Source: Methanotrichaceae archaeon
GTDB taxonomy: Archaea > Halobacteriota > Methanosarcinia > Methanotrichales > Methanotrichaceae
DNA length: 64,000 nucleotides
Assembly: GCA_963748825.1 (NCBI GenBank)
Contig: CAVVKN010000018.1
Span: forward strand, 87,493-151,492
Direction of reading: 5' to 3'
Shown here: piece after piece, positions 2,407 to 61,962 of the stretch
Layout: each line of letters starts with the position of its first letter
How positions within the stretch are numbered: the stretch's first letter is position 1
Notes under the pieces: generated by a model
The model's input: the letters and a program-made list of their open reading frames with translations, nothing else
What the model was told of the DNA's origin: nothing
Databases searched by the model: none
Made by a program: the position numbers and the translations under genes

Positions 2407-3989
2407 GATTTCACCTCTTCTGTTTTGACGCCTGCATCTTGTAGTGGCTTCGTATACTCTGCTCCAATCTCTCCCACGGTCATCGCCCTGGAGAGGGTAA
2501 CATTTCTTTTGGTCATTTCCGCTATGGCGGCCCTGGCATTCTCGGTCACATCGCCCTCGCATACCACGATTGGCGCGCCTGTCATCTTGGCCGTCTGATA
2601 GGCCCTGAATATGTCAGCTGGCCTGGATCCGGATAAGACCACCTCTGCAGTTCCATTCTGCCAGATTTCTGCGGCAAAGAGCCAGCACTCTTCGTAAAGG
2701 CTATTTCCATCAATGCGCTTGATTTCGACTCCGTCCAATACTTTTTCGGCGTCTTTAGTGACGATGGATTGATTGCCCAAAATCACAATCCGGGAATAGT
2801 CCTGCAGCTTCTCCTGATCCATTTCACTTAATTTGCCCGGAGGAACGGTAATTATGTCGAAATAAGCAGTTCCATTGCTCAAGCTGCTTATAGATGCGAT
2901 AGTGCTATAGAGGAATTCATCTCCCGTCAAAATGGCATTGCCTTGCGGCAAGATCACTTTGATGGATGCTATCTCTTCCGGCATTGGAATGCCCTGGGAG
3001 TCCATGAGCCGGAAGACAAGCGGATAGTCGCCTGCAGTCGAAGCCAGCAGGGTGAAATTGGCTATGCCAGGGCTATGCGGGCTAACATCTACCGTCTGGG
3101 CTAAAGGTATGACCATAAGCTCAGGAGGCGTTACTATTCCTACCATTACCTTCTCCTTAACATCCAGCATGATGTTGAAGGAGCCTTTGTAGGTCTTGTT
3201 GGTCACTATTTTTTCCGGGACCTTGATTTCCACGTTGTAGCCCCGAACAGCCACGGCAAAATCAACCACCGCCTCAACAGAAGAATTTTTGGACTGGTTG
3301 CCCAAAGATGTGGCTACGATTGAAAGATTGCCTTTCTTGCCGGGTTTGACTGTTTCCACTTGCAGCTTCATGGTATGGGTTGTGCCCGGGTCTAATGGCA
3401 AGTCGTAGGGAAAGTCGAGCGTTTTATCTCCATCCAGCAAGCTCACGCTCCACCCATCCGGCAGTGTCCCGGCGTCGATAGAGGCCACATCCCTAAAAGC
3501 GCCCAGGTTTTTAACAGCCAGATCGAATTGAGCGATATCTTCGGCATTGGCAGAAAGCTCAGCAGACTTGGCATCATCAATGGTCATGCCAATGCCATAG
3601 CTCTCCTGTCCGATGACAGTGAGAACGAAGTCTATTCTCATTGGCAGCGAGGGAGGTGCGCTGTCCAGTAAATATATAAATCCGGTGTAAGTTCCCGGTT
3701 TCGTCTCAGGAGGCAGGATAAAGTAGATCTTAATCTCTGCTTTATCCTGAGGCATGAGCGGTTTTTCTTCGGGCATGTCCAGAAATATGTAATCCCTGGC
3801 AGTTCCGCTCATCTCGGTTTTTGAGATCTTGAAGATTGTCGCATCTCCAATATTGGTTACCTTAAGCGTTCTCTCCTCCAGGTCACCGGAATGGAGCACA
3901 ACATCAAATCTTTCCTTGTCTGCTGTCAGCTGGGCGGAGCTGGCGGCAATCAGCAGGAATAGAATAATAATCGGGTATATCTGCCTCAT
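2403..3989 (-). CDS. Secreted protein with Ig-like/NPCBM-associated domains and a C-terminal cell-wall-binding-2-like region
   Basis: 528 aa ORF; signal peptide; Ig-like motifs (LKVTNIGD, VKNLG...LPDGWSV); alpha/beta C-terminus (IVILGNQSIV, GAPIVV). Confidence 0.7.
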   Translation of the reverse strand: MRQIYPIIILFLLIAASSAQLTADKERFDVVLHSGDLEERTLKVTNIGDATIFKISKTEMSGTARDYIFLDMPEEKPLMPQDKAEIKIYFILPPETKPGTYTGFIYLLDSAPPSLPMRIDFVLTVIGQESYGIGMTIDDAKSAELSANAEDIAQFDLAVKNLGAFRDVASIDAGTLPDGWSVSLLDGDKTLDFPYDLPLDPGTTHTMKLQVETVKPGKKGNLSIVATSLGNQSKNSSVEAVVDFAVAVRGYNVEIKVPEKIVTNKTYKGSFNIMLDVKEKVMVGIVTPPELMVIPLAQTVDVSPHSPGIANFTLLASTAGDYPLVFRLMDSQGIPMPEEIASIKVILPQGNAILTGDEFLYSTIASISSLSNGTAYFDIITVPPGKLSEMDQEKLQDYSRIVILGNQSIVTKDAEKVLDGVEIKRIDGNSLYEECWLFAAEIWQNGTAEVVLSGSRPADIFRAYQTAKMTGAPIVVCEGDVTENARAAIAEMTKRNVTLSRAMTVGEIGAEYTKPLQDAGVKTEEVKS

Positions 3990-4148
3990 CTAACACCACA
4001 CGATGGCATACGCCGGATTTTACTACTGTAAGTATCCCACTACGTTCCCCATTTATAAATCCTCTCTCAAAGGAATAAATAATAAGCTTCTCCTCTCGAC
4101 GGGCTAGTTTATATCTGTTATGCATCAGAACAACAGGTCGGTGTTTCC

Positions 4149-4640
4149 TTGGATCGAGAGAAAGCCTTTCTGGTGGCCACGCCCTTCAAGAAGCGTGGCA
4201 AGACAAGCCTGAAGATCAGCGACTTTATCTTTGCTCTATCCCTCGACCTGAAATGGGGGCCGCCGGAGAAGGTGCGCGCCCTCCTCCGGGAAGCGGAAGC
4301 TGAAGGCATGGTTAAGATGGAAGGTGAGATGGTAAATGCGATCTTTGATGCTGCGGCAGTGGATGTTCCCCTGGGATTCAAGCCGTCCACGGAGGAGGGC
4401 ATACTGGATCAGGGAATAAGGCTCATCACCTCCCATACTGGCATGAGCCGAAAAGAGGTCATTGCTCTTGCCAATGAGAAACAGGATTCCCTGAAAAAGC
4501 TGGTGGAGCTGGACGGCGTGGTGCTGCTGATCGCCAGAGAGATGGGCATCGATGTCTGCGAACTGGCTACTATTGCCTACGAGAACCTGCTGGCTCGCGG
4601 CAAGGAAGAGAAGAGCATTTCAGCCCGTCCGGAATCGTAA
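4149..4640 (+). CDS. DUF2240-family protein
   Basis: 163 aa; PFKKRGK...DFIFALSLDLKW motif typical of this archaeal family. Confidence 0.7.
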   Translation: MDREKAFLVATPFKKRGKTSLKISDFIFALSLDLKWGPPEKVRALLREAEAEGMVKMEGEMVNAIFDAAAVDVPLGFKPSTEEGILDQGIRLITSHTGMSRKEVIALANEKQDSLKKLVELDGVVLLIAREMGIDVCELATIAYENLLARGKEEKSISARPES

Positions 4641-4674
4641 GATTAATCTTCCATGGGGAAGGGACAGGGGATTT

Positions 4675-6024
4675 ATGACTCCCAGGGTTCTGTTCACAAC
4701 CATTTATAGAAAGGGCTCCGAGCCTTATGACTACATCGGAGCCAATACCAGGTCATGGTTCAGATTCTACTGGCCGCGCATCCAATCCTTCGGCCTGAGA
4801 TTTCTAAAGCAGAACATTCCCGAGCTGGAGATCCTGGAGTTTCCCACCTGGGATGAGTACCAGAAGAAGCTGCAAGAGGGCTGGGATGTAGTGGGGCTCT
4901 CCTTTTACCTGAGCGAGACCCATGAAGCCATGGAGATGGTGGATGCGGCGCGCGCCGCTGGAGCCGGCGAGGTTTGGGCGGGGAACTATGGCGCGCTGAC
5001 CACTGCGGTGCAGGACAGGTTCGATAGGATCTTCGTGGGCTACTCAGAGCGCGAGCTTGCCCCCTATTTCGGACGGCAGATCAAGGACATAATTCACCCT
5101 CCGCTCATCGAGTATCTCAACACGCCCTTCAATATCAAGCTGAACATTTACGGAGTGCTGTTCACCACGCGCGGCTGCCCGGTAGGCTGCAAATTCTGCC
5201 AGACGCCGGTCTTCTGCAATAAGCCCAATATCATCTCGCTGCAAAGCATCGAACGAGTTTTGGCCTACTATAAAGAGCACGGAATCAATGTCGTTTTGAT
5301 TGAGGATGAGAACTTCGGATGCAATCGCCGCCATGCCGATGCAGTCGTAGAGCTTTTGGACAAGTATCAGATGGTATGGGGATGCATGGCGCGGGCTGAT
5401 TATCTGAGAACGAAGATCGATGACTGGGCGGATATGAGGAAGAAGAACGGCAGAAAGGTGTCCGGCTTTGGGGGGGCGGCCATCGGCATCGAGAACTTGC
5501 ATCAAGAGCGCCTGGACCAGATGAAGAAGAAGGAAGGCACCGAGGACATTTTAGAGACGCTGCGCATGCTGCAAGCAAGAAATCTTGGCACCGTGGGTTA
5601 TTACATGATTGGCTTTGAGGAAGACACCAAGGAGTCGCTACGTGAGGACATAAAGAAGCTGGCGGCACTGAAACTGGACATAACCCAGATCTGCGTCATA
5701 ACCCCTCTGCCCCAGACGCCCATGTGGACGGAGATCGAGGAGAAGTTCGGCATCTGGGATCACGACTATCATCACCACGACGGCAAGCACATGGTCTGGA
5801 ATCATCCTCGCATCAAGCCCGAGGAGTTTCCGGGCATACTGGACTGGTCATTCAAGCAGGTCCATCCCTGGCATGCGCCTCTACGCACCTCGGCTAGGGT
5901 TTGGACCAACGCCTATCGCTACGGTGGCTGGAACGGAGTGAAAGAGGTTGCCGGCTACATCAGCCGGGCCAACAAGTTCGACTGGAATGCGGGCCTTCGG
6001 CTGCTGGAAGTGAGTGAGAGTTAA
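4675..6024 (+). CDS. Radical SAM protein with B12-binding-like N-terminal domain
   Basis: TTRGCPVGCKFC (CxxxCxxC), IEDENF, DVVGLS; likely start is ATG 4675. Confidence 0.85.
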   Translation: MTPRVLFTTIYRKGSEPYDYIGANTRSWFRFYWPRIQSFGLRFLKQNIPELEILEFPTWDEYQKKLQEGWDVVGLSFYLSETHEAMEMVDAARAAGAGEVWAGNYGALTTAVQDRFDRIFVGYSERELAPYFGRQIKDIIHPPLIEYLNTPFNIKLNIYGVLFTTRGCPVGCKFCQTPVFCNKPNIISLQSIERVLAYYKEHGINVVLIEDENFGCNRRHADAVVELLDKYQMVWGCMARADYLRTKIDDWADMRKKNGRKVSGFGGAAIGIENLHQERLDQMKKKEGTEDILETLRMLQARNLGTVGYYMIGFEEDTKESLREDIKKLAALKLDITQICVITPLPQTPMWTEIEEKFGIWDHDYHHHDGKHMVWNHPRIKPEEFPGILDWSFKQVHPWHAPLRTSARVWTNAYRYGGWNGVKEVAGYISRANKFDWNAGLRLLEVSES

Positions 6025-6039
6025 GGATGAAGGAAATCG

Positions 6040-7506
6040 ATGAAGATATTACTACTATCCTCTCCCGTAGTTCAGCTCGACTTTGACCGCATCGCTCGCG
6101 TGCCTAACCTGGGCCTCGCTTCATTGGCGGCGCATGTAGATGATCTATGCACGGTTCATGTAGCTGATATCCACGGCCTGAAAAACCACCGGGAATATAT
6201 GAGCAAGATCGTAAACGGCTACGATCTGATTGGCCTGACCGCTATGAGCTTTCAGTATCATGAGGCCCTGGCCCTGGCAAAGATTGCCAAGCAGGCAGGC
6301 GCAGAGACTGTTTTCGGCGGCTATCATCCCACGCTTGCGGCAGAAGAGATTGGCAATAGCACGGATGCTGCGCTCATCGACTACATTGTGCGCGGGGAAG
6401 GCGAGGCCACCTTCCGAGTGTTGGTAGAGGCCCTGTTGGCCGGAAAAAGCCCTCGGGGCATACTGGGCCTCTCCTACCACGAGGGCGAAGGGATAGGGGA
6501 AGGAATGGTCCATAATCCCCCAAGACCTCTGCTCAAGGTGGAAGAGATCAAAATGCCCAAAAGGGATGCGCGCCTCATCACCAAGGGCTTTTACAGCTTT
6601 GATGTGCCCATCGACTGCGTGGAGACCAGCCGGGGCTGCACGCAGGGCTGTAAGTTCTGCTCCATCAATCTCATGTATGGTCGCCGCTTCCGGCGCTTTC
6701 CCATTGAAAGGGTGATCGAAGATATCCGGGACGCCGAAGCGCACGGGGCAGGCTCCATCTTCTTCCCGGACGACAACATCACCCTGGACCCTAAGAGGCT
6801 GGAGAGGCTCTGCCAGGCCATCATCGATGCCGGGCTTACTCATCTGCGCTACAAGACGCAGGCTTCCGCCTCGGGCATTGCATCGAGCAAGCAGTTAGTG
6901 GACAAGATGGGCGAGGCAGGCTTTGATGGCGTCTTTTTGGGAGTGGAGAGCATCAACAAGAGGAACCTGGAGTTCCTGGGCAAGGGCAAGATGTCCAATG
7001 ATGCCGAGAAAGCCGTGCAGTACCTGCATGATAATAATATTATTGTCTCTACAGGCCTGATCGGTGGAAATCCCGATGACGATGAGGAGGACCTGTGGGA
7101 GAACTTTAAGCTGGCACGCAGGCTCAAAGTTGACTTTCCCATCTTCTACATCTCCACGCCCTACCCCAAGACAGAGATGCGTGCAGAGCTGGAGGAGATG
7201 GGCTTGGTCACCAACAGCGACTTCACCAGGTACGACGGGCTGCATGCCAATTTAAAGACCAAGAACCTCTCCGAAGAAGAGGTGCAGTACATCACCTGGC
7301 AGATGAACGCCCGCTACTACGATTTGGAATGGCTGCGGTACAACAAAGTCAAGCGCATCTATCCCAAGTGGTTTGCCCGCGAAATCCGAAGGCTGGCACC
7401 CTTTTACGCCAGGAGAAAGCTGGACCTGGCGCTGGGAAGGAGAACGCCGCGGGATTTCTTCCAGGAGGATCTGGCGAGCGGGGAGCTGTGCAAGGGAGTG
7501 ACCTAG
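6040..7506 (+). CDS. Cobalamin-binding radical SAM protein (class B methyltransferase-like)
   Basis: PNLGLASLAA, GGYHPT, VRGEGE, ETSRGCTQGCKFC, FPDDN motifs. Confidence 0.9.
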   Translation: MKILLLSSPVVQLDFDRIARVPNLGLASLAAHVDDLCTVHVADIHGLKNHREYMSKIVNGYDLIGLTAMSFQYHEALALAKIAKQAGAETVFGGYHPTLAAEEIGNSTDAALIDYIVRGEGEATFRVLVEALLAGKSPRGILGLSYHEGEGIGEGMVHNPPRPLLKVEEIKMPKRDARLITKGFYSFDVPIDCVETSRGCTQGCKFCSINLMYGRRFRRFPIERVIEDIRDAEAHGAGSIFFPDDNITLDPKRLERLCQAIIDAGLTHLRYKTQASASGIASSKQLVDKMGEAGFDGVFLGVESINKRNLEFLGKGKMSNDAEKAVQYLHDNNIIVSTGLIGGNPDDDEEDLWENFKLARRLKVDFPIFYISTPYPKTEMRAELEEMGLVTNSDFTRYDGLHANLKTKNLSEEEVQYITWQMNARYYDLEWLRYNKVKRIYPKWFAREIRRLAPFYARRKLDLALGRRTPRDFFQEDLASGELCKGVT

Positions 7507-7552
7507 TCAGAAGCAATAATTATTTACATAAGGCAGTTGTATTATCTGATAG

Positions 7553-7747
7553 ATGAAAACGAAAACCCGTGCGGTATTCGAAGATGGTATTTTAAGACCC
7601 TTAGAACGACTTAATTTGAAACAGGGCGAAGTGGTAGAAATAGAGATCTCCAATGCAGTTCGTAGATCTAAAGGCATCATAAAGATCGATGCAAAGCTGG
7701 GAAGAGAAATAGCAGAAAGCGATGAGTTTTCCTGCCTGGAAAGTTAG
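7553..7747 (+). CDS. Antitoxin, AF2212/DUF104-like
   Basis: 64 aa; AVFEDGILRPLERLNLKQGEVVEIEI; abuts a PIN toxin gene. Confidence 0.8.
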   Translation: MKTKTRAVFEDGILRPLERLNLKQGEVVEIEISNAVRRSKGIIKIDAKLGREIAESDEFSCLES

Positions 7748-8239
7748 ATGCTAGATACTATCCTTCCCGGAAGCAAAATCTTTATTGATTCAAATATAAT
7801 GATCTATCATTTTCTTGATCTTTCAGAGAGCTGTTCAATTCTCCTCGAACGAGTCGAGCACGGTGAGGTTCAAGCTTATATTTCCACAGTTGTGCAGGCT
7901 GAGGTCTTGCATAGATTGATGATATCAGAAGCGGTGGATAAATTCGGGATCAAACCCAACCAGGCGGTAAGATATCTGAAGGAGCATCCTCGTGCCATTG
8001 CATCCTTGGATAAGTGCGAGATTGCCTTAGCAGATATCCTTGAGTTCAATATCGAGGTCATATGCATGGGAAGAGAAGCAATAATCAAGAGCCAGAATTT
8101 TAGAGAATGCTACGGTTTAATGACCAATGACTCCTTGAACTTTTATGCGATGAAGAAAGAAGGGCTCAGAATAATTGCCACCAATGACAGAGATTTCGAG
8201 CGTATTGATGGGATCGAGGTCTGGAGACCAAATGTTTGA
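7748..8239 (+). CDS. vapC: PIN-domain (VapC-type) toxin
   Basis: FIDSNIMIY, EVLH, LMTNDS, IATNDRDFERI PIN motifs. Confidence 0.85.
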   Translation: MLDTILPGSKIFIDSNIMIYHFLDLSESCSILLERVEHGEVQAYISTVVQAEVLHRLMISEAVDKFGIKPNQAVRYLKEHPRAIASLDKCEIALADILEFNIEVICMGREAIIKSQNFRECYGLMTNDSLNFYAMKKEGLRIIATNDRDFERIDGIEVWRPNV

Positions 8240-8278
8240 AATGCAGCTACTGGCGTACTTTAATGTCTCGGAGCTACC

Positions 8279-8485
8279 TCAATCTCCTCTCCACTCCTGG
8301 ATCTTGTGTTGCAGTTCCACCGATGTGTACCGATCCTTTATGTCTTCCAAAGCTCCTCTCCAATCCAGCTTCAAGCGGCCTTTTGGCTTTCTGCCTCGTT
8401 TCTCCATCAGGAACTTTGCGAAATCGGCAACCTCTTGATGGAGATCAGGAGGAAGCTCTTTGATTACTTCTTCCGGCTCTGACAT
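8279..8485 (-). CDS. DUF2281-like small antitoxin-type protein
   Basis: 68 aa; LPPDLHQEVADFAKFL...LKLDWRGAL...TSVELQH. Confidence 0.7.
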   Translation of the reverse strand: MSEPEEVIKELPPDLHQEVADFAKFLMEKRGRKPKGRLKLDWRGALEDIKDRYTSVELQHKIQEWRGD

Positions 8486-8767: not shown

Positions 8768-11700
8768 ATGCCGCAAGATGCCCCCTCCCCCCAGGGCTTT
8801 CGAGTTCTGGTAATAGTCTCCCGGCCGCTGGACCTGCTGGACCTGCCCAACTTAGCTGACCAGTGGGCCTTGCAGGGCGGCCTGAGACGGGTCCAGGCCC
8901 TGGCCTACCTGAAGATGCTCCGCCCGCCCACGGTGGAGAGCCTACGCAGCGAGATTTTGAACGGCTACGACATCGTCCACTTCGATGGTCACGGGGACTT
9001 CGGACTGCGCTGCCCTAACTGCGGCGGGCTCCAGTTCGCCACAGCAGAAAGAGTGCGAGCCGCTGCGACGCTCTTCTTGAGGACGAGATGGCGAAGGGCT
9101 ACTTCGCCTTCGAGCGAGAGGACGGCAAACTGGACGCTCTTGGCGGCGGAGGAGCTGGCGAAGATCGTCATGAGCGCGCCGGGCAAAGCAACGAAGTTGG
9201 TCTTCCTGAGCGCCTGCGAGTCGGCCAAAGGAGGCGAGGCCAGTCTCTTAAACGCTCTGCTGTCGTAGCGGCGTTCCTGCCGTCCTGGGGATGAATGAGT
9301 CCGTTCCATTAAAGGCGACCATGGCTCTGACCACGCCCTTTTACGCTGGCCTGGGAGCGGGCATGACCATCGCCCAGGCCTTCCAGAATGCCCTGCCTGC
9401 ATTTGAAGAGGTTGGAGAACGGCAGCAAACTGCAGAAGATCCCGGTGCTGGAAGGGCCGGGAAAGGATGTCAAGATTCTGCCGACAAAAGTCAGCGGGAG
9501 GGCAAGCTTTGAGGCGGAGCGGCTCTTCGGCCTTCCCGAGCACGAGTTCGTGGGCGACTACATCCGGGCGATCCGCCGCGCGGGCGCAAGGGGCTTCTCT
9601 CTCAGGCCATGGATGCTCTTCAGTCCGGAGAAAAGCTGGTCGTCCTCACCGGGCAGGGAGGCATCGGCAAGACAGTGCTGGCCTCGGAAGCGGCCCGGCG
9701 GCTGGCCTGGCGCTATCCGGGCGGCGTCTTCTGGCGGAGCGCTGCCGAACTGGAGACGACTGGGCCTGGAGGAGATGCTTAATGCCTTTGATAATGTCTT
9801 TGGACTAGAGTTCCGGACGCTTCCCCTCGATGCAAAGCGCGACCAGGTTTTGGGCTATCTCAGGAATTACGATACAGCCAGCTTGCTGGTGGTGGATAAC
9901 GCCGAGAGCATCCAGGATCAAAATCTTTGGCGCTTCCTGGAGGGCATCCCCCAGCCCAGCGCCGCTCTGGTGACCACGCGGGAGAGCCTGCCGTGCGGGG
10001 GCCGGGAGATCCGAGTGCCCGAGATGGAGACAGAGGAGGCAGGCAGGCTGCTCATCAGCAGAAGCGCGCCGGCGCTCGCCCAGGTGGGGAGAGCACTTGA
10101 GCCCGGCTGATCTGCAGAGCCTGAATGAGATCGCAGGCTTCATGCAGGGTCATCCACTGGCCATCAAGCTGATTGCGGCGCTCATGACTAGCAGAAGCCT
10201 GGCCAGCATCAGAGACGAGCTGAGAAGAAATCCACCTAGAGAAGTATCGGATCGTTTTGATGTCTCTTACAGAAGTTTGACAGAAGGGCAGAGAGATCTC
10301 TTCTGCCGCCTGGCGGTCTTCTCTGGCTCCATGACGGAAGAAGCCATGGGAGCATTTGCATTGAGGAAGATCAAAAAGGCAATTGGAACTGGCAGAGCGA
10401 TCTGGGCGAACTGGAACGCAGATCCTTCCTGGACAGAATTGAGATAGAGGCTCATGATGATTCGGGCAATGAGGTCACGCTCTATCGCTACCGCCTGCAT
10501 CCGCTCATGCGCCAGTATGCTGCCGGAAAAGCTGGAGAAGAGCTTCTGGCCAGATTTAGATCGAAGGCTGCTGATTATTTTATGGGATATGCTCAACATT
10601 TTAATAATAGCTACGATATGCTTGAGATGGAAAAGGGAAATATTCTTTCTTGCATGGAATGGGCTAATCGATGAGATTCGCATGATCCAGATCGGAATTC
10701 ATAAACTGGGAAATTGTCTCAAAGAATTGGCAATTATGCGAGAAGCTCGCAAGCTTTACGAACATGCAATAGGCTGTGGAGGACTTGCTCCGCATAAGGA
10801 GTTGGGACAACGGCATCGAGTAGCTAGGCAGCTCAGGATAGATCAGTACCTTCAGTAACCTATCCTTTCGCTTTCTCGTCGATGCTATTGTTTCATCCAG
10901 CATCACATAACCTGTTTTGGCTGTGGGCGAGAAGATGAAATCAAAGAGCCACTCAAGATATACCCCAAAACCACAATCAGGATTCTCTTTAAAATCCGCC
11001 AGCAGTTCATAATAGTGCCATAGCCGATCGATAAAACCACTCAGCAGAGTTCTATGTTGTTCAAGAACGGGTGTTAGTTTCCTATAATGCCGTATCTCAT
11101 GTATCCAGCATAACCCCTGCTTTGAAGATATGGAATGGAATTGCTGGGCAGCATCCGAAACCATTGGCTTGTCTATTTGCTCGCCTTCTTTCAATCCGAA
11201 AATGGGTCTCAAATCATCTTTGCTTTTTCCGCCTAGAATGAAGAACGAGCCGAACTGATCATTGCACACCACGTCCAGATAATGATTTTTCCCTGCGTGC
11301 CTGGCACCAGTGTCATCTATCTGAAAGTAATCTGCGTTCTCCATACCGGTTTTGAATATCGCATTTTTTTCGGCGGTAAATTCTTCGCGCTTCTCTTCGA
11401 TCATGATGTTTGAGATCGTGCCTTCAGAGATGATGGTGCCGATGCTCTCCAAGATCTTCTGGATTTTGTTCTCGGTTACTCTTCCCAGGTTATGGAGGGT
11501 GATCGCGAATGCTTTCAGGCGGCTTCCAAAACTGGTCCCTTGCAGATCCTTTGGAAGTTTCGCTTCGAAGGTCTTTTTTAAGGAAGGCGAATAGAATCGC
11601 TCAAGAAGGCACTCCATGTTGCATGTTTTAAATGCAATGTCTTGAATAACTACGCTGCGAAAACCCTTTGGAATCGCATCATCTGGAAGAATGCTCCTAT

Positions 11701-12746
11701 CGACGCAGAACTTCTGAATGCGATCTATCTTGACTCTGGTTATTTTGGCTTCTTTTTTCCAGGGTTTGGATTTACCTACTTGATGATTGGGTTTGTCACG
11801 AGGAATATCAGGAACGTTTGGCAGTATCTTTGGTTTGTCTAGATGCTTTAGATCAGAGGTCGGCATTCAAAATATTGAGCATGTTCAGCTTTACCAGCAA
11901 AGTATGAAAATTAGTCGGGAATTATGGGATGTGAGAGGAGAATCTGGCTCGCTTCATAATTTAGGCGTTCTTGCCTATGTTTGCGGTGATTACGCCGAGG
12001 CCCGAAATCACCTTTACCAGAGCTTGGAAATTGATCAAGAATTGGATGATAAAAGGGGGGTGGCTAATTCTTTAAATCATTTGGGTTTAGTGGCTCAAGC
12101 AATCGGCGACTATAACGAGGCCTGCAAGCTCTATCAGCAGAGCCTAAAAATAAAGTTGGATATAGGAGAAAAGAGAGGTGCATCCAGTTCGCTTATCAAC
12201 TTGGGCAATCTGGCCCAGGCAACTGGCAACTATGAAGGGGCCCGGAAGTTCTATCAGCAGAGTGTGGAAATTGATCAAGAATTAGGTGATAGGAGCGGAG
12301 AAGCTAGATCGTTGCTCAACTTGGGCACTCTAGCCCAGGCAACTGGAAATTATGACAAGGCCCGGGACCTCTACCAGCAGAGCTTGAAAATTGATCAAGA
12401 AATGGGTAACAAAAGAAGCGTGGCCAAATTGCTGAACAACTTAGGGACCTTGGCTCAGATCACTTGCAACTATGATTATGCTAGCATACTCTATCAAGAG
12501 AGCTTGAAAGTTGATCAGGAAATAGGTGATAAAAGAGGTGTGGCTAGTTCTCTTCACAACTTGGGCGCAATATCCCAGGTCACCGGCGACTATGCCGAGG
12601 CCCAAAAGCTCTACCAGCAGAGCATGAAAATTATGCAGGAACTAGGCGACAAGAGCGGCATTGCTCTCACCCAGGCACAACTAGCATCTCTGGAAGAGAA
12701 AATGGGGAATAAGAAAGTCGGCTTTGCAGCTCATTCTTCAGGCTGA
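8768..12746 (+). pseudogene. CHAT (caspase-like) protease / NB-ARC STAND ATPase / TPR protein, multiply frameshifted and interrupted by an IS66-like segment
   Basis: Across frames: DIVHFDGHG and LVFLSACES (CHAT His/Cys), LVVLTGQGGIGKT (Walker A), LLVVDNAE (Walker B), GHPLAIKL, YRLHPLMRQYA, then about seven 40-aa TPR units from about 11880 to 12746. Confidence 0.85.
10826..11880 (-). mobile_element. IS66-like transposase segment, truncated at both ends
   Basis: ORF 10664-11866: FGSRLKAF, ISEGTISN, FQIDDTG, MVSDAAQQF, LCWIHEIRHY, LLKVLIYPELP. No terminal inverted repeats seen; boundaries approximate. Confidence 0.75.
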
Positions 12747-12841
12747 GGCGAGCTTTTCTGGAACTGGGTAGCCCCTACGCAAAACTGGCCGGAGAGGTCA
12801 GGCAAAGACTGGATCAAAATCAATGAGATAGGAGAACGATC

Positions 12842-13057
12842 ATGCTCAAGATACAATGCTTCAATGAGAAATGCACTGCACCAGGCCGAATATTTCAGTG
12901 GAATGAGCGTCCACACTTAGAGGCAGACGGTAGGCTGGCCAAAGAAGGAGACGAAGGAGCGGTATCGTTTGTTGAGCTATGCCCATCCTGTGGCACCAGG
13001 AACAAGATTCCGGGTGACAAAGGTGCAAGAGAACGACGTAAGAAGGAAATGATTTAG
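12842..13057 (+). CDS. Small zinc-ribbon protein
   Basis: 71 aa with CFNEKC and CPSCG cysteine pairs; GGAG-like site upstream; co-oriented with neighbours. Confidence 0.65.
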   Translation: MLKIQCFNEKCTAPGRIFQWNERPHLEADGRLAKEGDEGAVSFVELCPSCGTRNKIPGDKGARERRKKEMI

Positions 13058-13075
13058 ATTGGGGAGGACACAGAT

Positions 13076-13556
13076 ATGCCAGACAATGCAGACGCACCGG
13101 ACGCCATCGGCGAGCCCGTCACCGAGCTGGACGAGTTCTGGCTGGAGACGGCCAGGACCGCAGTCCGTGAGTCCATCGCCTCTCTGGAGGAGGCGGCCAA
13201 GCAGCTCATCGGGGCTGTGACCCTGGTGGAGGGCATCTATTTTGCTGCCATATCCTTCAGCGACCTGCGAAAAGTCATGGCTGTGCAGGGCATGGAGGCG
13301 TGATTTTCGCATCCTGCTCTTCGTGAGCCCCATCGTCCTGTGGCTCGTCTGCCTCTTCTTTGCGGTGCGGGTCTTCACACCCGAGACCTACAAGACAAAC
13401 CTCAACTCGCCCCAGCTTGCCGAGAAGTTCTACCGGGAGATGGTCGGCTACAAGCACCGCAATTTGAAGAGGGCCTACTGGGCGCTGCTGGCCGGGTTTG
13501 TGCCGCTGGTATTCGCCGTGGTGTTCTACCTCAAGCTCCTGGACGGGCCGGGCTGA
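13076..13556 (+). CDS. Three-TM membrane protein resembling Pycsar-type (PycTM) effectors; one frameshift near 13300
   Basis: Joins ORFs 13076-13303 and 13242-13556: EEAAKQLIGAVTLVEGIYFAAISFS / LWLVCLFFAVRVFTP / YKHRNLKRAYWALLAGFVPLVFAVVFYL; GGAGG upstream. Confidence 0.6.
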
Positions 13557-13857
13557 AGGCTTTGCTCTGGTACCACTCGTTGTTTCGAGCGGGATCCCGA
13601 ATGGGAATTGGCCAGAATTTTAAAAGGCAAATGGACTTCGTCCTGATCGATTTTTGCACATAGAAATTCCACCAGAGTCGCGGCAAAGTGGCCCAGGATC
13701 ATCCTCTTTCAGGCTCCCGTGCTTGCGGGCAGGGCGGGCGCGTCGGGGCTTACGGGCTGGGCAAGCAAATCAGAGATAACAGGAATGGAGCCTGCAATAG
13801 CAGGTCTAAGGCCTGGACGTATTTGACTTCCGTAACATCAATCTAGGAAAGCCTCGC

Positions 13858-13968
13858 CAGAAAGGATCTGATCTATCTGATACAGAATTGGCAGAATTTG
13901 CTTTTTCAAGATATCCCAGAGTATCTCTTCATCCAGGCCGAAGTACCTGTGAACAGAGATATCCCTTC
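13858..13968 (-). pseudogene. HepT/DUF86 (HEPN ribonuclease) C-terminal remnant
   Basis: Minus strand reads RDISVHRYFGLDEEILWDILKKQI (RxxxxH motif). Confidence 0.65.
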
Positions 13969-14019
13969 CAAGCCTGGCAGAGGACCATAGACAGAGTTTT
14001 GTCAGAAATTAATGTGCAG

Positions 14020-14306
14020 TTGTTCAGCCATTACTGGCCGAACTCCCACCCTAGATCAATAGGCTGATCCTCCTCCCTGCTGGCGGTCTGTTTTTATTGC
14101 CTCTGCATGCCATACCTATCTCCGATGGCCGGCTCCTCTGCCAGCGTTACTGCATAAGCTATCAGCTTGCGAGACAGGATTGATCGATGTTATGAAGGGC
14201 AGCGCAGAGGAGTTTGTTGGCCTTCCTGCGGGGTTTATGCTTGCGGGAGTTCCCTGTGTTGTGAGCAGCCTCTGGTCGGTACCGGATATCTCCACTGCCC
14301 TTCTGA
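14020..14306 (+). pseudogene. Second CHAT-domain remnant with internal deletion
   Basis: RLILLPAGGLFLLPLHAIPISDGRLLCQRY joined directly to LSACETGLIDVMKGSAEEFVGLPAGFMLAGVPCVVSSLWSVPDISTALL. Confidence 0.75.
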
Positions 14307-15241
14307 TACCAGCATCCTATAGTTGAGGCCTGAAATAATTATATCTAAACACTTGCGTGTGGCCAGCCTGTCCTTGTGGGTGGGGTATATTTCGGGCCGC
14401 ACGACCGGTTCTCCGGGATTCAGAAATCATCGGGTCTTCGTTGCTCAGATCTTATTCACGATCCTCTGTGCTCACGAAATAATAAACCTTCAGCAATACC
14501 TACTTTGAATATTGAGATAATGTCAATGAACATATTATTTCAGCGAGTTGATCCATTTCGCGCAGCAAAGTGGCTAGTGAATCCCAATGACTGAGCTTGC
14601 AGGTTGAACTTGCTGGTAAAAACATGTGGGCATCCCGTCCTCCACATGGCCATATACCGGTAATTACTTCCAAGTTGCAAGCTGCGGGGCATCAAAGGCG
14701 CCGCCGCATGATATTCTGTATTTCACAAAATCACCTCTTTTGAAACTAATATGTTCAGTAACCTTAAGAACTTTTGCATTTAAGATACACTAATTAATTT
14801 TATATTGGAGTTAATTTTTTCTAAAAAATATAAAGATAATTAGAGCCAATTCCGTTATCAATCGGACTTTTGTCGCATTGGCATAATAATCTAGGCGGAA
14901 GAAATTTCTCTGCTAAATGTGATTAATTATCAATTTTTTTTATCTCATAAATTAGAAACCAAATTTCTTAATACTATTATTATGTGGATTGCAGATAGCT
15001 TCGCGAATAAACTGCTAAATTATTTTGTAATTATGCCTGTATTTCCTATCGTATTAATACTGAAACCATTAGCTTTATTTTTACAGAGTTCGGTTTCATT
15101 TTTAATACTATTATCTCTATTACAACTACGATCATTTTCTTGAATATCCATATGATATAATCCAACAATTGCTTTCGATATGTTTATATCCCTTAAAGGC
15201 AAATTCTTCGTATACTCAATAGAGTATAGGGGTGAATTAGA

Positions 15242-16123
15242 ATGAAGGGAGTAGTAATAGCGACAGCTTTAATTCTAATGCTATGCTGTTGTACCGCATT
15301 GGCCAACCCACCATTGGTTCCGCCAGTACAGTACGAACAGTTTTGTGAAGCACAGAAGGTATCCGGAAACGGCGTTATCGATGTCAGTACCTCAATAGTC
15401 GATAAGAAGATCGCTCTGGAGTACTTCAACAACATGGCCGGAGACGGCGATTTCGAGCTTGACCAGGAGCATGCTTACTCGCAAAATTCCGATAAGCTGC
15501 TGAGAAATATAACCTCTGTCAACGGTGGAAACGAGTCTGAGCTCAATCTATTTGAGCAGACCAAGCTCACCTACGCCAGCAAGGACACGCCTCTTATGGG
15601 TGAGAAGTTCCTGCATTCCAAGGCGTTTTACGGAGGCATAGGTGCGAAGATCAAGGAGTCTTTTGCGGTTTATGAAATGGAGAAGGATCAGACCTCTTTC
15701 TTTGTCTCAACCACGCCCTACAATCCCCAGGAACCGCCGGCAACGCCTGTCTGCCAGGACTACTTGCAGCTTCTGGCATTGTACTATCCACGGGAATATG
15801 CCCAGTACATGGCACAGACCACGCACACCATAACTCCTGAGCAGCTCATTAAGGAGCTCAAGGATGCGGGAAGGGACACTGCCCGAGTGGCTGCCCTCAT
15901 GGGCAACAATCCGGCCCACGTTATCGGCCTTGAGACCAAGAATACCTTCAACGGCACATGGGGAACAGATGCTACATGGCATAAGATATTCTACAAGGAT
16001 ATCAACGCCCACGAGATGTTCTCCGGAACATTCGAGGCAGAGAAGACCATCAAGTTCCATGAGAATCCCGTGCCCGAAAAGGAAGGAGGACACCACCTTG
16101 CTTGCGACGGCATAGATTGCTAG
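15242..16123 (+). CDS. Secreted beta-rich hypothetical protein
   Basis: 293 aa; signal peptide; Cys near both mature termini; GGGGTGA site upstream; T-rich tract downstream. Confidence 0.75.
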   Translation: MKGVVIATALILMLCCCTALANPPLVPPVQYEQFCEAQKVSGNGVIDVSTSIVDKKIALEYFNNMAGDGDFELDQEHAYSQNSDKLLRNITSVNGGNESELNLFEQTKLTYASKDTPLMGEKFLHSKAFYGGIGAKIKESFAVYEMEKDQTSFFVSTTPYNPQEPPATPVCQDYLQLLALYYPREYAQYMAQTTHTITPEQLIKELKDAGRDTARVAALMGNNPAHVIGLETKNTFNGTWGTDATWHKIFYKDINAHEMFSGTFEAEKTIKFHENPVPEKEGGHHLACDGIDC

Positions 16124-17329: not shown

Positions 17330-17836
17330 AAAGTGAAGCGGGGCATTGTAGATACGATTTCAGCTCGTCATTCTGCCAGGATTTTAAAAAAAAGGGTCTC
17401 GAACCACACTTGATTCGCTACTGGCTAACACCTGCGCCGGACGAACGGTTTGACGAAAAGGTAGACGACATCAATTCATTGTACCAACAAGCCCAGAATT
17501 TAGCTCAAAAAGGTGAAGTTGTAATGAGCATCGATGAAATGACGGGGGTTCAAGCTCTCGAACGCAAACACCCTGGATTGCCAATGGCACCAGGAAAAGT
17601 GGAACGAAGAGAGTTTGAGTACGTCAGGCATGGAACTCAATCATTCATCGTGAGCTTTGCGGTAGCCAGCGGACGGATTGACACCATTTCTTGCGGCGAT
17701 ACGCGCAATGAAGATGACTTCGTATCGCATATCAAGGAGGTGGTTGAAAGCTCTTTATCCGCATCCCGCTGGCACTTTGTCGCTGACAACCTCAATATCC
17801 ATAAATCAGAATCCCTCGTGAGGTATGTGGCCGATA
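17330..17836 (+). mobile_element. IS630-family transposase fragment
   Basis: SIDEMTGVQALER, EFEYVRHGT, VADNLNIH; TTTTAAAAAAAA slippery run near 17385; truncated at both ends. Confidence 0.8.
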
Positions 17837-18050
17837 GTACTAGGGATTTCCTTTCTGATCCAAGCTCAAATCTTTAGGCTAATGCTAAGCATTTCGCCTT
17901 TTAGAGCGTTGATAATTTTATAGAATGATATAATTTTTTCTTTTTTCTTTTTCAATCCGCTGTCAAAGCATAAAGATAAGACACTCTCGAAGAAAATTCT
18001 CAGAGCGTTATACAGAAAAATTTATATATGACCAGCGATAAGATATATAT

Positions 18051-57039: not shown

Positions 57040-57166
57040 GAGCACGGCAGCGATCTGCAGTTCCCGAGAGCTCGCGCATCTGAGTACAGTGCAGAACGTG
57101 GACAGGCTTATCTTCTGAGTTCGGAATGGGTTCAGGAGTTTCCCTGTCGCTCTGGCCGCCATGCTC
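57040..57166 (-). rRNA. rrf: 5S rRNA
   Basis: Minus strand GGCGGCCAGAGCG...ACCCATTCCGAACTCAGAAGATAAGCC...CGCTGCC; ends approximate. Confidence 0.92.
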
Positions 57167-57274
57167 GATTCCAAGTACCGGAATCGAACCGGTTTAGTGC
57201 CTCCCCGGGCCGTAACCCGGGGTCTTGGGTTAATGTGCCTTAAGCTTTGCGACCAGATTTCGCCCGAGTTTAGT

Positions 57275-60170
<2,896 letters not shown>

Positions 60171-60297
60171 GCTTATGCCCCACTAAACTCAGTGAGCGTC
60201 TGGTCGCAAAGCTTGTGCACGGCATCATCGGACCGCTCCGTCAAGAACGGACCTTCGCCCTTCCACATCGAGTCTGCCTCAATGTGTGCATTGTAAT

Positions 60298-60370
60298 TGG
60301 ACTTGCTGGGATTCGGACCCAGGGCCTCCGCCTTGCAAAGGCGGCGCTCTACCAGCTGAGCTACAAGCCC
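60298..60370 (-). tRNA. tRNA-Ala (TGC)
   Basis: GGGCTTGTAGCTCAGCTGGTAGAGCGCCGCCTTTGCAAGGCGGAGGCCCTGGGTCCGAATCCCAGCAAGTCCA in the 16S-23S spacer. Confidence 0.96.
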
Positions 60371-60491
60371 GGGTACTAGCCCCAGCTAATAATCAGAATA
60401 GCTGGCTAATTGGTTCTCTTTTTGGTCTCGGTCGACATTTTCAGCTTCCAACTGGTTACGGGTGGGTATGCTTGTGCATACCCATAACGTT

Positions 60492-61962
<1,471 letters not shown>

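Follow-up and report, generated by a model that had tools for sequence, protein, structure and literature searches.

A probable disabled copy of a conserved three-gene cassette with a caspase-like NLR-type gene in a Methanotrichaceae archaeon

Contig CAVVKN010000018.1 of a Methanotrichaceae archaeon carries, within the stretch of 64,000 nucleotides analysed here (the window; positions count from its first letter), three consecutive genes on one strand. They encode an NLR-like protein with CHAT, NB-ARC and TPR regions, a small zinc-ribbon protein and a membrane protein with three transmembrane (TM) helices, the 3-TM protein (Table 1). The genome (G000) comprises 25 contigs and 2.88 Mb at 94.9% completeness; its relatives are Methanothrix, judging by the source names of homologous proteins and loci. 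An IS66-type insertion sequence (IS) splits the NLR-like gene, and thirteen one-base frame errors are spread over about 3.7 kb across all three genes. Our reading, at a probability of roughly 0.6, is that the locus represents a three-gene cassette that is conserved and has spread horizontally, here in a disabled copy. In such a cassette a zinc-ribbon protein and a 3-TM protein accompany a sensor of caspase-like NLR type, and the cassette itself is probably an immune or cell-death switch. An annotation made from the letters of the window without database searches (the sequence-only reading) had described the genes as a candidate archaeal defence operon. The copy in the window is disabled by the IS and the frame errors, and 'archaeal' was too narrow, as cassettes also occur in Acidobacteriota and Chloroflexota.

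Table 1. Cassette genes, motifs and adjacent remnant, in window coordinates
Feature	Position	Strand	Basis or remark
CHAT-NB-ARC-TPR (NLR-like) gene	8768-12826	+	11 one-base frame errors; split by IS66-type element
5' part of NLR-like gene: CHAT, NB-ARC, helical region	8768..10759	+	Pfam CHAT, three-frame translation, DNA alignment with 6 relatives, NB-ARC profile
CHAT domain	about 8768-9560	+	
His motif HFDGHG	8978-8995	+	same frame as Cys motif
CPNC	9011-9022	+	
Cys motif LSACES	9206-9223	+	
Walker A GQGGIGKT	9651-9674	+	
IS66-family element, internally deleted	10760..11886	-	Pfam DDE_Tnp_IS66, inverted repeats, target duplication
3' part of NLR-like gene: TPR repeats and conserved tail	11887..12826	+	Pfam TPR_12, three-frame comparison with relatives
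Zinc-ribbon gene, 71 aa	12842..13057	+	alignment of 29 homologues; one frame error
3-TM membrane protein gene	13076..13556	+	three-frame comparison with 6 intact relatives; one frame error
Second, separate CHAT gene remnant	14063..14326	+	matches positions 192-246 of the 289 in the Pfam CHAT profile (E 8.9e-14)

The first open reading frame (ORF) of the NLR-like gene, 8768-9268, matched Pfam CHAT (PF12770) with an E value of 4.1e-12 and 46.6 bits against a cut-off of 24; the same model gave 73.4 bits for an intact relative and 60-69 bits for six bacterial homologues. A CHAT protease with intact His and Cys motifs had been described in the sequence-only reading. Both motifs are indeed there, but three one-base insertions (9034, 9059 and 9140) are hidden between them: they cancel out inside the ORF and leave ~35 codons scrambled. 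Across the aligned homologues, which come from both domains of life, H..GHG and LSAC.S were invariant (12 of 12). Behind the His, a four-Cys insert was present in all six Methanotrichaceae sequences and absent from all six bacterial ones, the relatives reading CPNC-x(9-10)-C-x-R-C...GYFAFEREDGKLDALAAEELA between the His and Cys motifs. This Cys-rich insert had also been noticed before; the window copy retains CPNC, but its second Cys pair is broken by the insertions.

The STAND ATPase and TPRs assigned earlier were both recovered. Besides the Walker A motif, the motifs LLVVDNAE and VTTRE occur in further ORFs of the NLR-like gene, in other frames. NB-ARC (PF00931, cut-off 23.5) scored 34.8 bits in the intact relative and 34-46 bits in the bacterial homologues; the NB-ARC fragments of the window had no Pfam match at E<=0.01, but a profile built from the relatives recognised them with E values of 1e-38 to 1e-57. 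Apaf-1 was the closest solved structure for the NTPase (E 2e-6). The TPR array lies in ORF 11787-12746 (Pfam TPR_12, E 2.8e-49). In six same-genus genomes the NLR-like proteins range from 799 to 1212 aa, with variable TPR length. A conserved C-terminal tail, ...AFLELGSPYAKLAGEVRQRLDQNQ before the stop codon, is reached in the window only after one-base shifts at 12717 and 12752. Against PADLOC-DB v2.0.0, a library that dates from 2023, the NLR-like protein matched only generic TPR models, together with weak rows for mad8 (E 4.5e-4) and SAVED_CHAT (E 1.4e-3).

The 71-aa zinc-ribbon gene predicted from the letters was borne out: the ORF has four Cys (C6, C11, C47 and C50), which pair on a structural model with four strands (predicted local distance difference test (pLDDT) 78). 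In an alignment of 29 homologues, C11, C47, C50, F18, W20 and N8 were invariant and C6 nearly so. The tail of the window protein departs from the family after N54-K55, past the second CxxC, and an extra base lies near 13008. No family in Pfam, NCBIfam or PADLOC matched the zinc-ribbon protein. A single additional base near 13301, after ...QGMEA, breaks the 3-TM gene into the frames 13076-13303 and 13242-13556; relatives of the gene encode proteins of about 155-159 aa. In the model of a relative's 3-TM protein, long helices span residues 14-58, 70-95 and 109-152 (pLDDT 91.9). A K/R-rich second loop implies that the acidic N-terminal 40 residues are cytoplasmic. Of 1.84 billion cluster representatives, 569 belong to the family at E<=1e-3. 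Complex predictions for the zinc-ribbon and 3-TM proteins scored 0.17 and 0.24 against a mark of 0.32, and carry no weight either way.

The trio is a real conserved unit, common to archaea and bacteria. Using the membrane-protein profile, we obtained 35 loci across one genome per species. A zinc-ribbon ORF lay directly upstream on the same strand in 32 of them; L035 has only 12 bases of upstream sequence, and none was found in L049 and L062. Upstream sequence of at least 2.8 kb was available in 24 loci, and all of these except L050 and L053 had a CHAT-NB-ARC gene further upstream in the same orientation (22 of 24). These 22 include bacterial cassettes from Acidobacteriota (L052, L056, L057 and L059) and Chloroflexota (L054 and L063), and Pfam confirmed CHAT, NB-ARC and TPR in the large proteins of all six bacterial loci. 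Within the genus, 20 of the 36 other genomes had the membrane protein and 12 had the CHAT N-terminus, whereas a search of 24 genomes from other genera gave neither. In many loci the stop codon of one gene abuts the start codon of the next, or the genes overlap by a few bases, and they are thus probably co-translated.

Separation of the NLR homologues from the two small genes had been named as an outcome that would refute the proposed operon. Instead, the order NLR, zinc ribbon, membrane protein on one strand was kept in all six genomes that have both genes full-length on one contig (G001, G004, G012, G020, G028 and G034), although the NLR of G020 is split into 722 + 320 aa and the zinc-ribbon gene of G012 is shifted. 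A metagenome scan with the CHAT region gave 80 loci, and the three closest (57-89% identical) likewise carry NB-ARC, zinc ribbon and membrane gene, so that the three genes stayed together wherever the NLR homologue was at least 57% identical and the available sequence sufficed to tell. Apart from L079, which is taken up below, none of the other 76 metagenome CHAT loci carries either small gene, indicating that the trio is a mark of one particular clade of caspase-STAND genes and no general companion of CHAT genes. The membrane-protein tree (27 rows) and a tree of the first 620 NLR residues (20 rows), the latter from a quick search, gave the same major groups and split bacteria from archaea at 91/88 and 100 support. 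Of the three proteins, it is the membrane protein that shows the highest conservation between the domains, with 43-51% identity vs 26-28% for the CHAT region.

Several loci depart from the standard arrangement. A CHAT N-terminal fragment abuts a 3-TM fragment at G010:C13:10303-10727, G011:C183:55693-56205 and G013:C97:1802-2156, which by their look are deletion remnants. In two Methanothrix genomes the 3-TM gene is duplicated, in L024 (G020; 5395-5822 and 6387-6863) and L027 (G016; 3713-4042 and 5165-5644), with the second copies N-terminally shortened or shifted. An IS200-type (Y1_Tnp) transposase lies directly upstream of the small-gene pair in L053 (5243-5662, Anaerolineae) and L059 (5090-5536, Chloracidobacterium), in the latter between the NLR gene and the pair. 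The 3-TM proteins of L058 and L060, labelled as Clostridia metagenome-assembled genomes (MAGs), group with Chloracidobacterium at 100/100 support, and the zinc-ribbon ORFs of these loci have 60-70 extra N-terminal residues; mis-binning, gene transfer or wrong start codons are possible. G000 itself holds no second cassette, only a TPR/zinc-ribbon-like remnant on C3. There, a STAND-like set without CHAT (C3:23385-26586, minus strand) encodes a 450-aa P-loop protein (GHRGCGKS) and a 571-aa TPR protein with an NLR-like tail, ...LFLELRSPMASQAQKARERLEKE. Behind these two genes comes a remnant of 52 codons that resembles the zinc-ribbon gene (E 3.4e-9), and the site yielded no membrane gene.

The element in the window copy starts GAACATGC..AATA and ends TATTGAGCATGTTC, forming terminal inverted repeats, and is flanked by an 8-bp target duplication, AGCTTTAC, at 10752-10759 and 11887-11894. 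Its insertion point falls within the TPR codon run EARKLY/QQSMKI. The ORF at 10664-11866 on the minus strand encodes a truncated transposase and continues past the element into NLR sequence; it reached 28.6 bits with Pfam DDE_Tnp_IS66 (cut-off 23.1) and 55 bits with the NCBIfam IS66 equivalog, whose cut-off of 180 was missed because this copy is internally deleted. Other copies of the IS, on contigs C22, C6 and C11, are 99% identical and include some internal parts that the window copy has lost. An IS-free allele was found in contigs from two (X1 and X2) of three related public metagenomes, X1-X3, where position 10751 joins 11887 with a single AGCTTTAC. The target duplication together with the empty site in other strains indicates that the insertion is probably a real transposition, and in cells carrying the element it disables the sensor gene by itself, whichever explanation holds for the one-base indels.

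For the first 2 kb, indels were called from a DNA alignment with six same-genus relatives that are 73-81% identical, which gave seven one-base insertions (9034, 9059, 9140, 9263, 9401, 9756 and 10059) and two one-base deletions (9566 and 10348). Contigs of the related metagenomes lack six of the thirteen indels (10058/9, 10346/8, 12717, 12752, 13008 and 13301): both extra bases of the C-terminal shifts and the one near 13301 are absent from X1, X2 and X3, and that near 13008 is absent from X1 and X2. Stretches left uncovered by these contigs, like the habitat labels of the runs, were given no weight. After frame correction, no stop was left in the first 605 usable codon columns, and unique changes at otherwise conserved positions comprised five amino-acid vs ten silent ones, a ratio inside the 0.22-1.5 range of nine relatives. 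With no stops and no excess of amino-acid changes, the single-base errors are probably assembly artefacts. The assembly looks long-read-like, as an rRNA operon and several IS copies lie inside contigs. Thirteen indels with so few substitutions fit neutral decay poorly. We therefore hold it about twice as likely that the thirteen indels are consensus errors in a strain-variable stretch as that they are mutations.

That the indels are real is accordingly the smaller but still substantial share of the probability; the cassette would then be an array of pseudogenes in decay, with the IS or a frameshift as the first silencing event. All three genes are hit, whereas the other translated or scanned genes of the window (radical-SAM, PIN, AF2212-like, enolase and aminotransferases) are whole; the target duplication points to a real IS insertion; a truly degenerate CHAT remnant lies 500 bp downstream; and the deletion remnants in G010, G011 and G013 indicate that cassette loss is common in the genus. 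Decay of the window copy is difficult to reconcile, however, with the codon columns free of stops and the unremarkable ratio of amino-acid to silent changes, or with the long-read-like assembly. Some of the related-strain contigs are ~99% identical to the window and have no gaps in the flank at 7500-8311, but over 12265-12799 they differ from it by six substitutions and two gaps, a share of indels far above what neutral decay generally produces. Moreover, on other very long contigs the cassette has frame breaks in L029, L037, L042 and L057, with none in L039. With this many frame errors, the locus calls for caution over consensus quality where seemingly long-read assemblies have strain-variable islands.

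The sequence-only reading had likened the 3-TM gene to the membrane effectors of Pycsar systems. A three-helix protein is indeed encoded, but its likeness to these effectors proved weak and under the Pfam cut-off. PADLOC models for PycTM, the effector family in question (Pfam PF18967), matched 3-TM proteins at E 1.5e-4 to 2e-2. Aligned by hhalign with seven true archaeal PF18967 proteins, the family gave a probability of 86.5 and a score of 41.4 over 119 collinear columns, vs 19.5 and 23.6 for reversed controls. In the ESM Atlas, unnamed bacterial clusters came first; PF18967 occurs in 4 of the 30 nearest clusters, where 21% of the members have it. PF18967 itself had no match at E<=1e-5 in G000, nor in any of the 12 Methanotrichaceae genomes included in a search of 401. 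The likeness thus recurs in different comparisons but is weak each time, and these comparisons lend weak support to the 3-TM protein being a distant PycTM look-alike. The absence of a cyclase nearby, also stated earlier, extends further: class III cyclase (PF00211) had no match in the whole genome, at its 94.9% completeness, and no cyclase gene was among the listed neighbours of the loci. Searched with the family sequence profile, the PDB returned nothing below E 0.37. NINJ1 is a membrane-rupture protein of animal cell death. One of its chains, 9bia_A, showed the best geometry among the non-significant Foldseek rows for the L021 3-TM model (probability 0.84, target TM-score 0.60, E 0.77), which is a lead only.

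Together, these features suggest how an intact cassette might act. Its first gene encodes an Apaf-1-like STAND protein in which a caspase-fold CHAT protease at the N-terminus is joined to an NB-ARC NTPase and a TPR array as the likely sensor. The array may bind an invader or stress ligand, upon which NTP-dependent oligomerisation, by analogy with Apaf-1 and Avs, could gather and activate the CHAT domains. The protease would then act on, or recruit, the zinc-ribbon/3-TM pair, as protease-gated effectors elsewhere lead one to expect, and the pair might damage the membrane, ending in abortive infection or cell death. Like the other steps of this scheme, cleavage of the zinc-ribbon or the membrane protein by the CHAT protease is inferred from those other systems. 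Taken whole, an Apaf-1-like caspase-STAND protein that gates a PycTM-type 3-TM effector through a zinc-ribbon adaptor, as an immune or cell-death system of archaea and bacteria in which proteolysis or recruitment replaces the cyclic nucleotide, is a tentative proposal and rather doubtful in its full form.

A number of results weigh against a disabled effector cassette of this kind. PF18967, with a cut-off of 27.2 bits, gave 7.7-13.2 bits on five of seven 3-TM proteins and nothing on two, and none of 40 family representatives reached that cut-off (best 21.6 bits). None of 30 block shuffles exceeded the real hhalign score, but the best came to 40.3. Foldseek against the PDB found no solved structure at E<=0.001 for the model of either small protein (best E 0.23 for the 3-TM model), and the viral contigs searched held no relative of the 3-TM protein. 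L079, at 45% CHAT identity, has NB-ARC but neither small gene within 3.5 kb downstream. Conversely, the zinc-ribbon/3-TM pair occurs without an NLR in L050 and L053, and beside an MBL-fold gene in L061. The NLR is hence not obligatory for the pair, which may be a self-contained module recruited by this NLR clade. The neighbours of the cassette in the window are housekeeping genes and toxin-antitoxin pairs, with no rich defence island. As to artefact or mutation, seven of the thirteen indels are called from the alignment with relatives alone, and no public run contained the source reads, the best share of sampled words being 0.21.

The main rival to the proposed mechanism makes the CHAT protease itself the executioner, which on STAND oligomerisation would cleave cellular proteins, with the pair serving as regulator, membrane tether or safeguard. 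The invariant His/Cys dyad agrees with this, as does the strong conservation of the membrane protein between domains, which a housekeeping-like partner might well show. A pure regulator of the NLR would not, however, be expected to persist without it, as the pair does in the three loci just named, and the recurrent, weak likeness to PycTM effectors suggests an effector role. We regard a protease executioner as unlikely.

Even less probable, in our estimate, is a role outside antiviral defence, with the cassette serving kin conflict or regulated cell death in prokaryotes that form filaments and are of a multicellular type. Methanothrix and its relatives are filamentous, as are Anaerolineae/Chloroflexota, but the Acidobacteriota hosts are not known to be filamentous. 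Caspase-STAND systems are described as enriched in multicellular prokaryotes in two surveys (PMC7159879, PMC8195603). The absence of a defence island around the locus and of a relative in the viral contigs would suit such a role, which does not, however, exclude an antiviral one. Moreover, the variable TPR length, the patchy presence of the CHAT N-terminus within the genus and the IS hits are typical of defence genes.

Upstream of the cassette, two B12/radical-SAM genes (4552-7506) are also found in Methanothrix relatives. Between them and the cassette lie toxin-antitoxin-type genes: an AF2212-like gene at 7553-7747, a PIN-domain gene at 7748-8239 and a DUF2281 gene at 8279-8485 on the minus strand. 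At the same spot relatives carry other such genes (by their motifs nucleotidyltransferase-like and HEPN-like), which makes it a variable islet in a conserved neighbourhood. We rejected the idea that the NB-ARC-TPR protein helps the radical-SAM genes in maturing a ribosomally synthesized and post-translationally modified peptide, a role in the manner of HaaT or FxSxx-COOH proteins: although HaaT (E 1.3e-73) and FxSxx_TPR (E 3.2e-31) were its top NCBIfam rows, they stayed far below cut-off (248.6 vs 1125 and 108.6 vs 300 bits) and reflect only shared NB-ARC and TPR, the variable toxin-antitoxin genes intervene, and none of the six bacterial cassettes has a radical-SAM-like gene among the listed ORFs upstream of its NLR.

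Downstream, what can be recognised of the second CHAT gene lies entirely C-terminal to the catalytic core, which seems to be deleted. The stretch 13663-15242 has no long ORF; when 46 short ORFs from ORF-poor gaps were scanned with Pfam, only this remnant and one CxxCxxCC fragment came up, and three of the gaps lie in or beside the rRNA operon. A DDE_3-type transposase fragment at 17410-17877 on the plus strand (E 1.9e-11) is another mobile-element remnant near the locus. The archaeal rRNA operon is complete at 57042-61962 on the minus strand (16S 60492-61962, spacer tRNA 60298-70, 23S 57275-60177 and 5S 57042-57163), and its position inside the contig is typical of long-read assemblies.

Should the cassette work as proposed, a small 3-TM effector of PycTM type would answer to an NLR-like sensor that bears a protease, and not to a nucleotide cyclase. 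Caspase-like proteolysis would thereby be linked for the first time to the PycTM-type membrane effector family, and prokaryotic STAND immunity would gain a new output arm. It would also mean caspase-type regulated cell death in archaea, testable through the bacterial homologues. Compact, with about 4 kb for all three genes, found in three phyla or more and without a name in the libraries searched, the family is a practical candidate for defence screens.

No PADLOC, NCBIfam or Pfam model names the cassette or its small proteins, in keeping with the sequence-only reading, which did not recognise the trio as a named system. Full-text literature searches turned up no account of the trio either. 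Bacterial gasdermins with CHAT or caspase-like proteases are protease-gated membrane effectors, and in Craspase the TPR-CHAT protease Csx29 is paired with Csx30. The cassette resembles both in that a caspase-fold or TPR-CHAT protease is encoded beside a protein whose cleavage, in those systems, frees a toxic or membrane activity. Unlike gasdermins, however, no cassette protein matches a PADLOC gasdermin model, and the 3-TM protein is integral and helical rather than a soluble pore-former with an inhibitory tail; unlike Craspase, the cassette has no CRISPR component. With PycTM it shares a small three-helix protein of about 150-200 aa, a collinear alignment and a conserved Lys before TM3. It differs in a TM2-TM3 loop about 40 residues shorter and in falling below the Pfam cut-off. 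PycTM-type proteins are membrane-acting abortive-infection effectors. PycTM and PucTM are described in a preprint as 3-TM proteins of the pJV1-spdB3 family, PucTM forming a hexameric cylinder (bioRxiv 10.64898/2026.08.12.744502). Whereas Pycsar relies on a cyclase, the cassette has no cyclase match in the genome or loci and is partnered by a zinc-ribbon protein and a caspase-STAND protein, so any trigger would be a protein or proteolysis and not a cyclic nucleotide.

Closest in architecture are the STAND families with protease effectors, already surveyed in three articles (PMC13581612, PMC7159879, PMC8195603), whose searched passages do not describe the trio, although supplementary tables could list the clade. 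Like the Avs and Apaf-1-like caspase-STAND proteins of the first (PMC13581612), the large cassette protein combines in a single chain an effector at the N-terminus, a STAND NTPase and, at the C-terminus, a repeat sensor; as in the Apaf-1-like group, the effector is a caspase-fold protease and the NTPase is nearest to Apaf-1. In contrast to Avs, it matches no PADLOC Avs model and has a TPR sensor, not a beta-propeller. Two small partner genes behind such an NLR are not mentioned in the searched passages of that survey, which has at least 90 families, so that its supplements could list the clade. The conflict systems of Kaur, Burroughs, Iyer and Aravind share the combination of AP-ATPase, TPR and caspase, and are predicted to be immunity or apoptosis switches (PMC7159879, PMC8195603). 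The passages searched in these two papers describe no zinc-ribbon and 3-TM pair behind the caspase-AP-ATPase-TPR gene. Overall, the comparison suggests that, while the caspase, AP-ATPase and TPR architecture has long been known, the new element is the putative zinc-ribbon/3-TM output pair behind a caspase-STAND gene.

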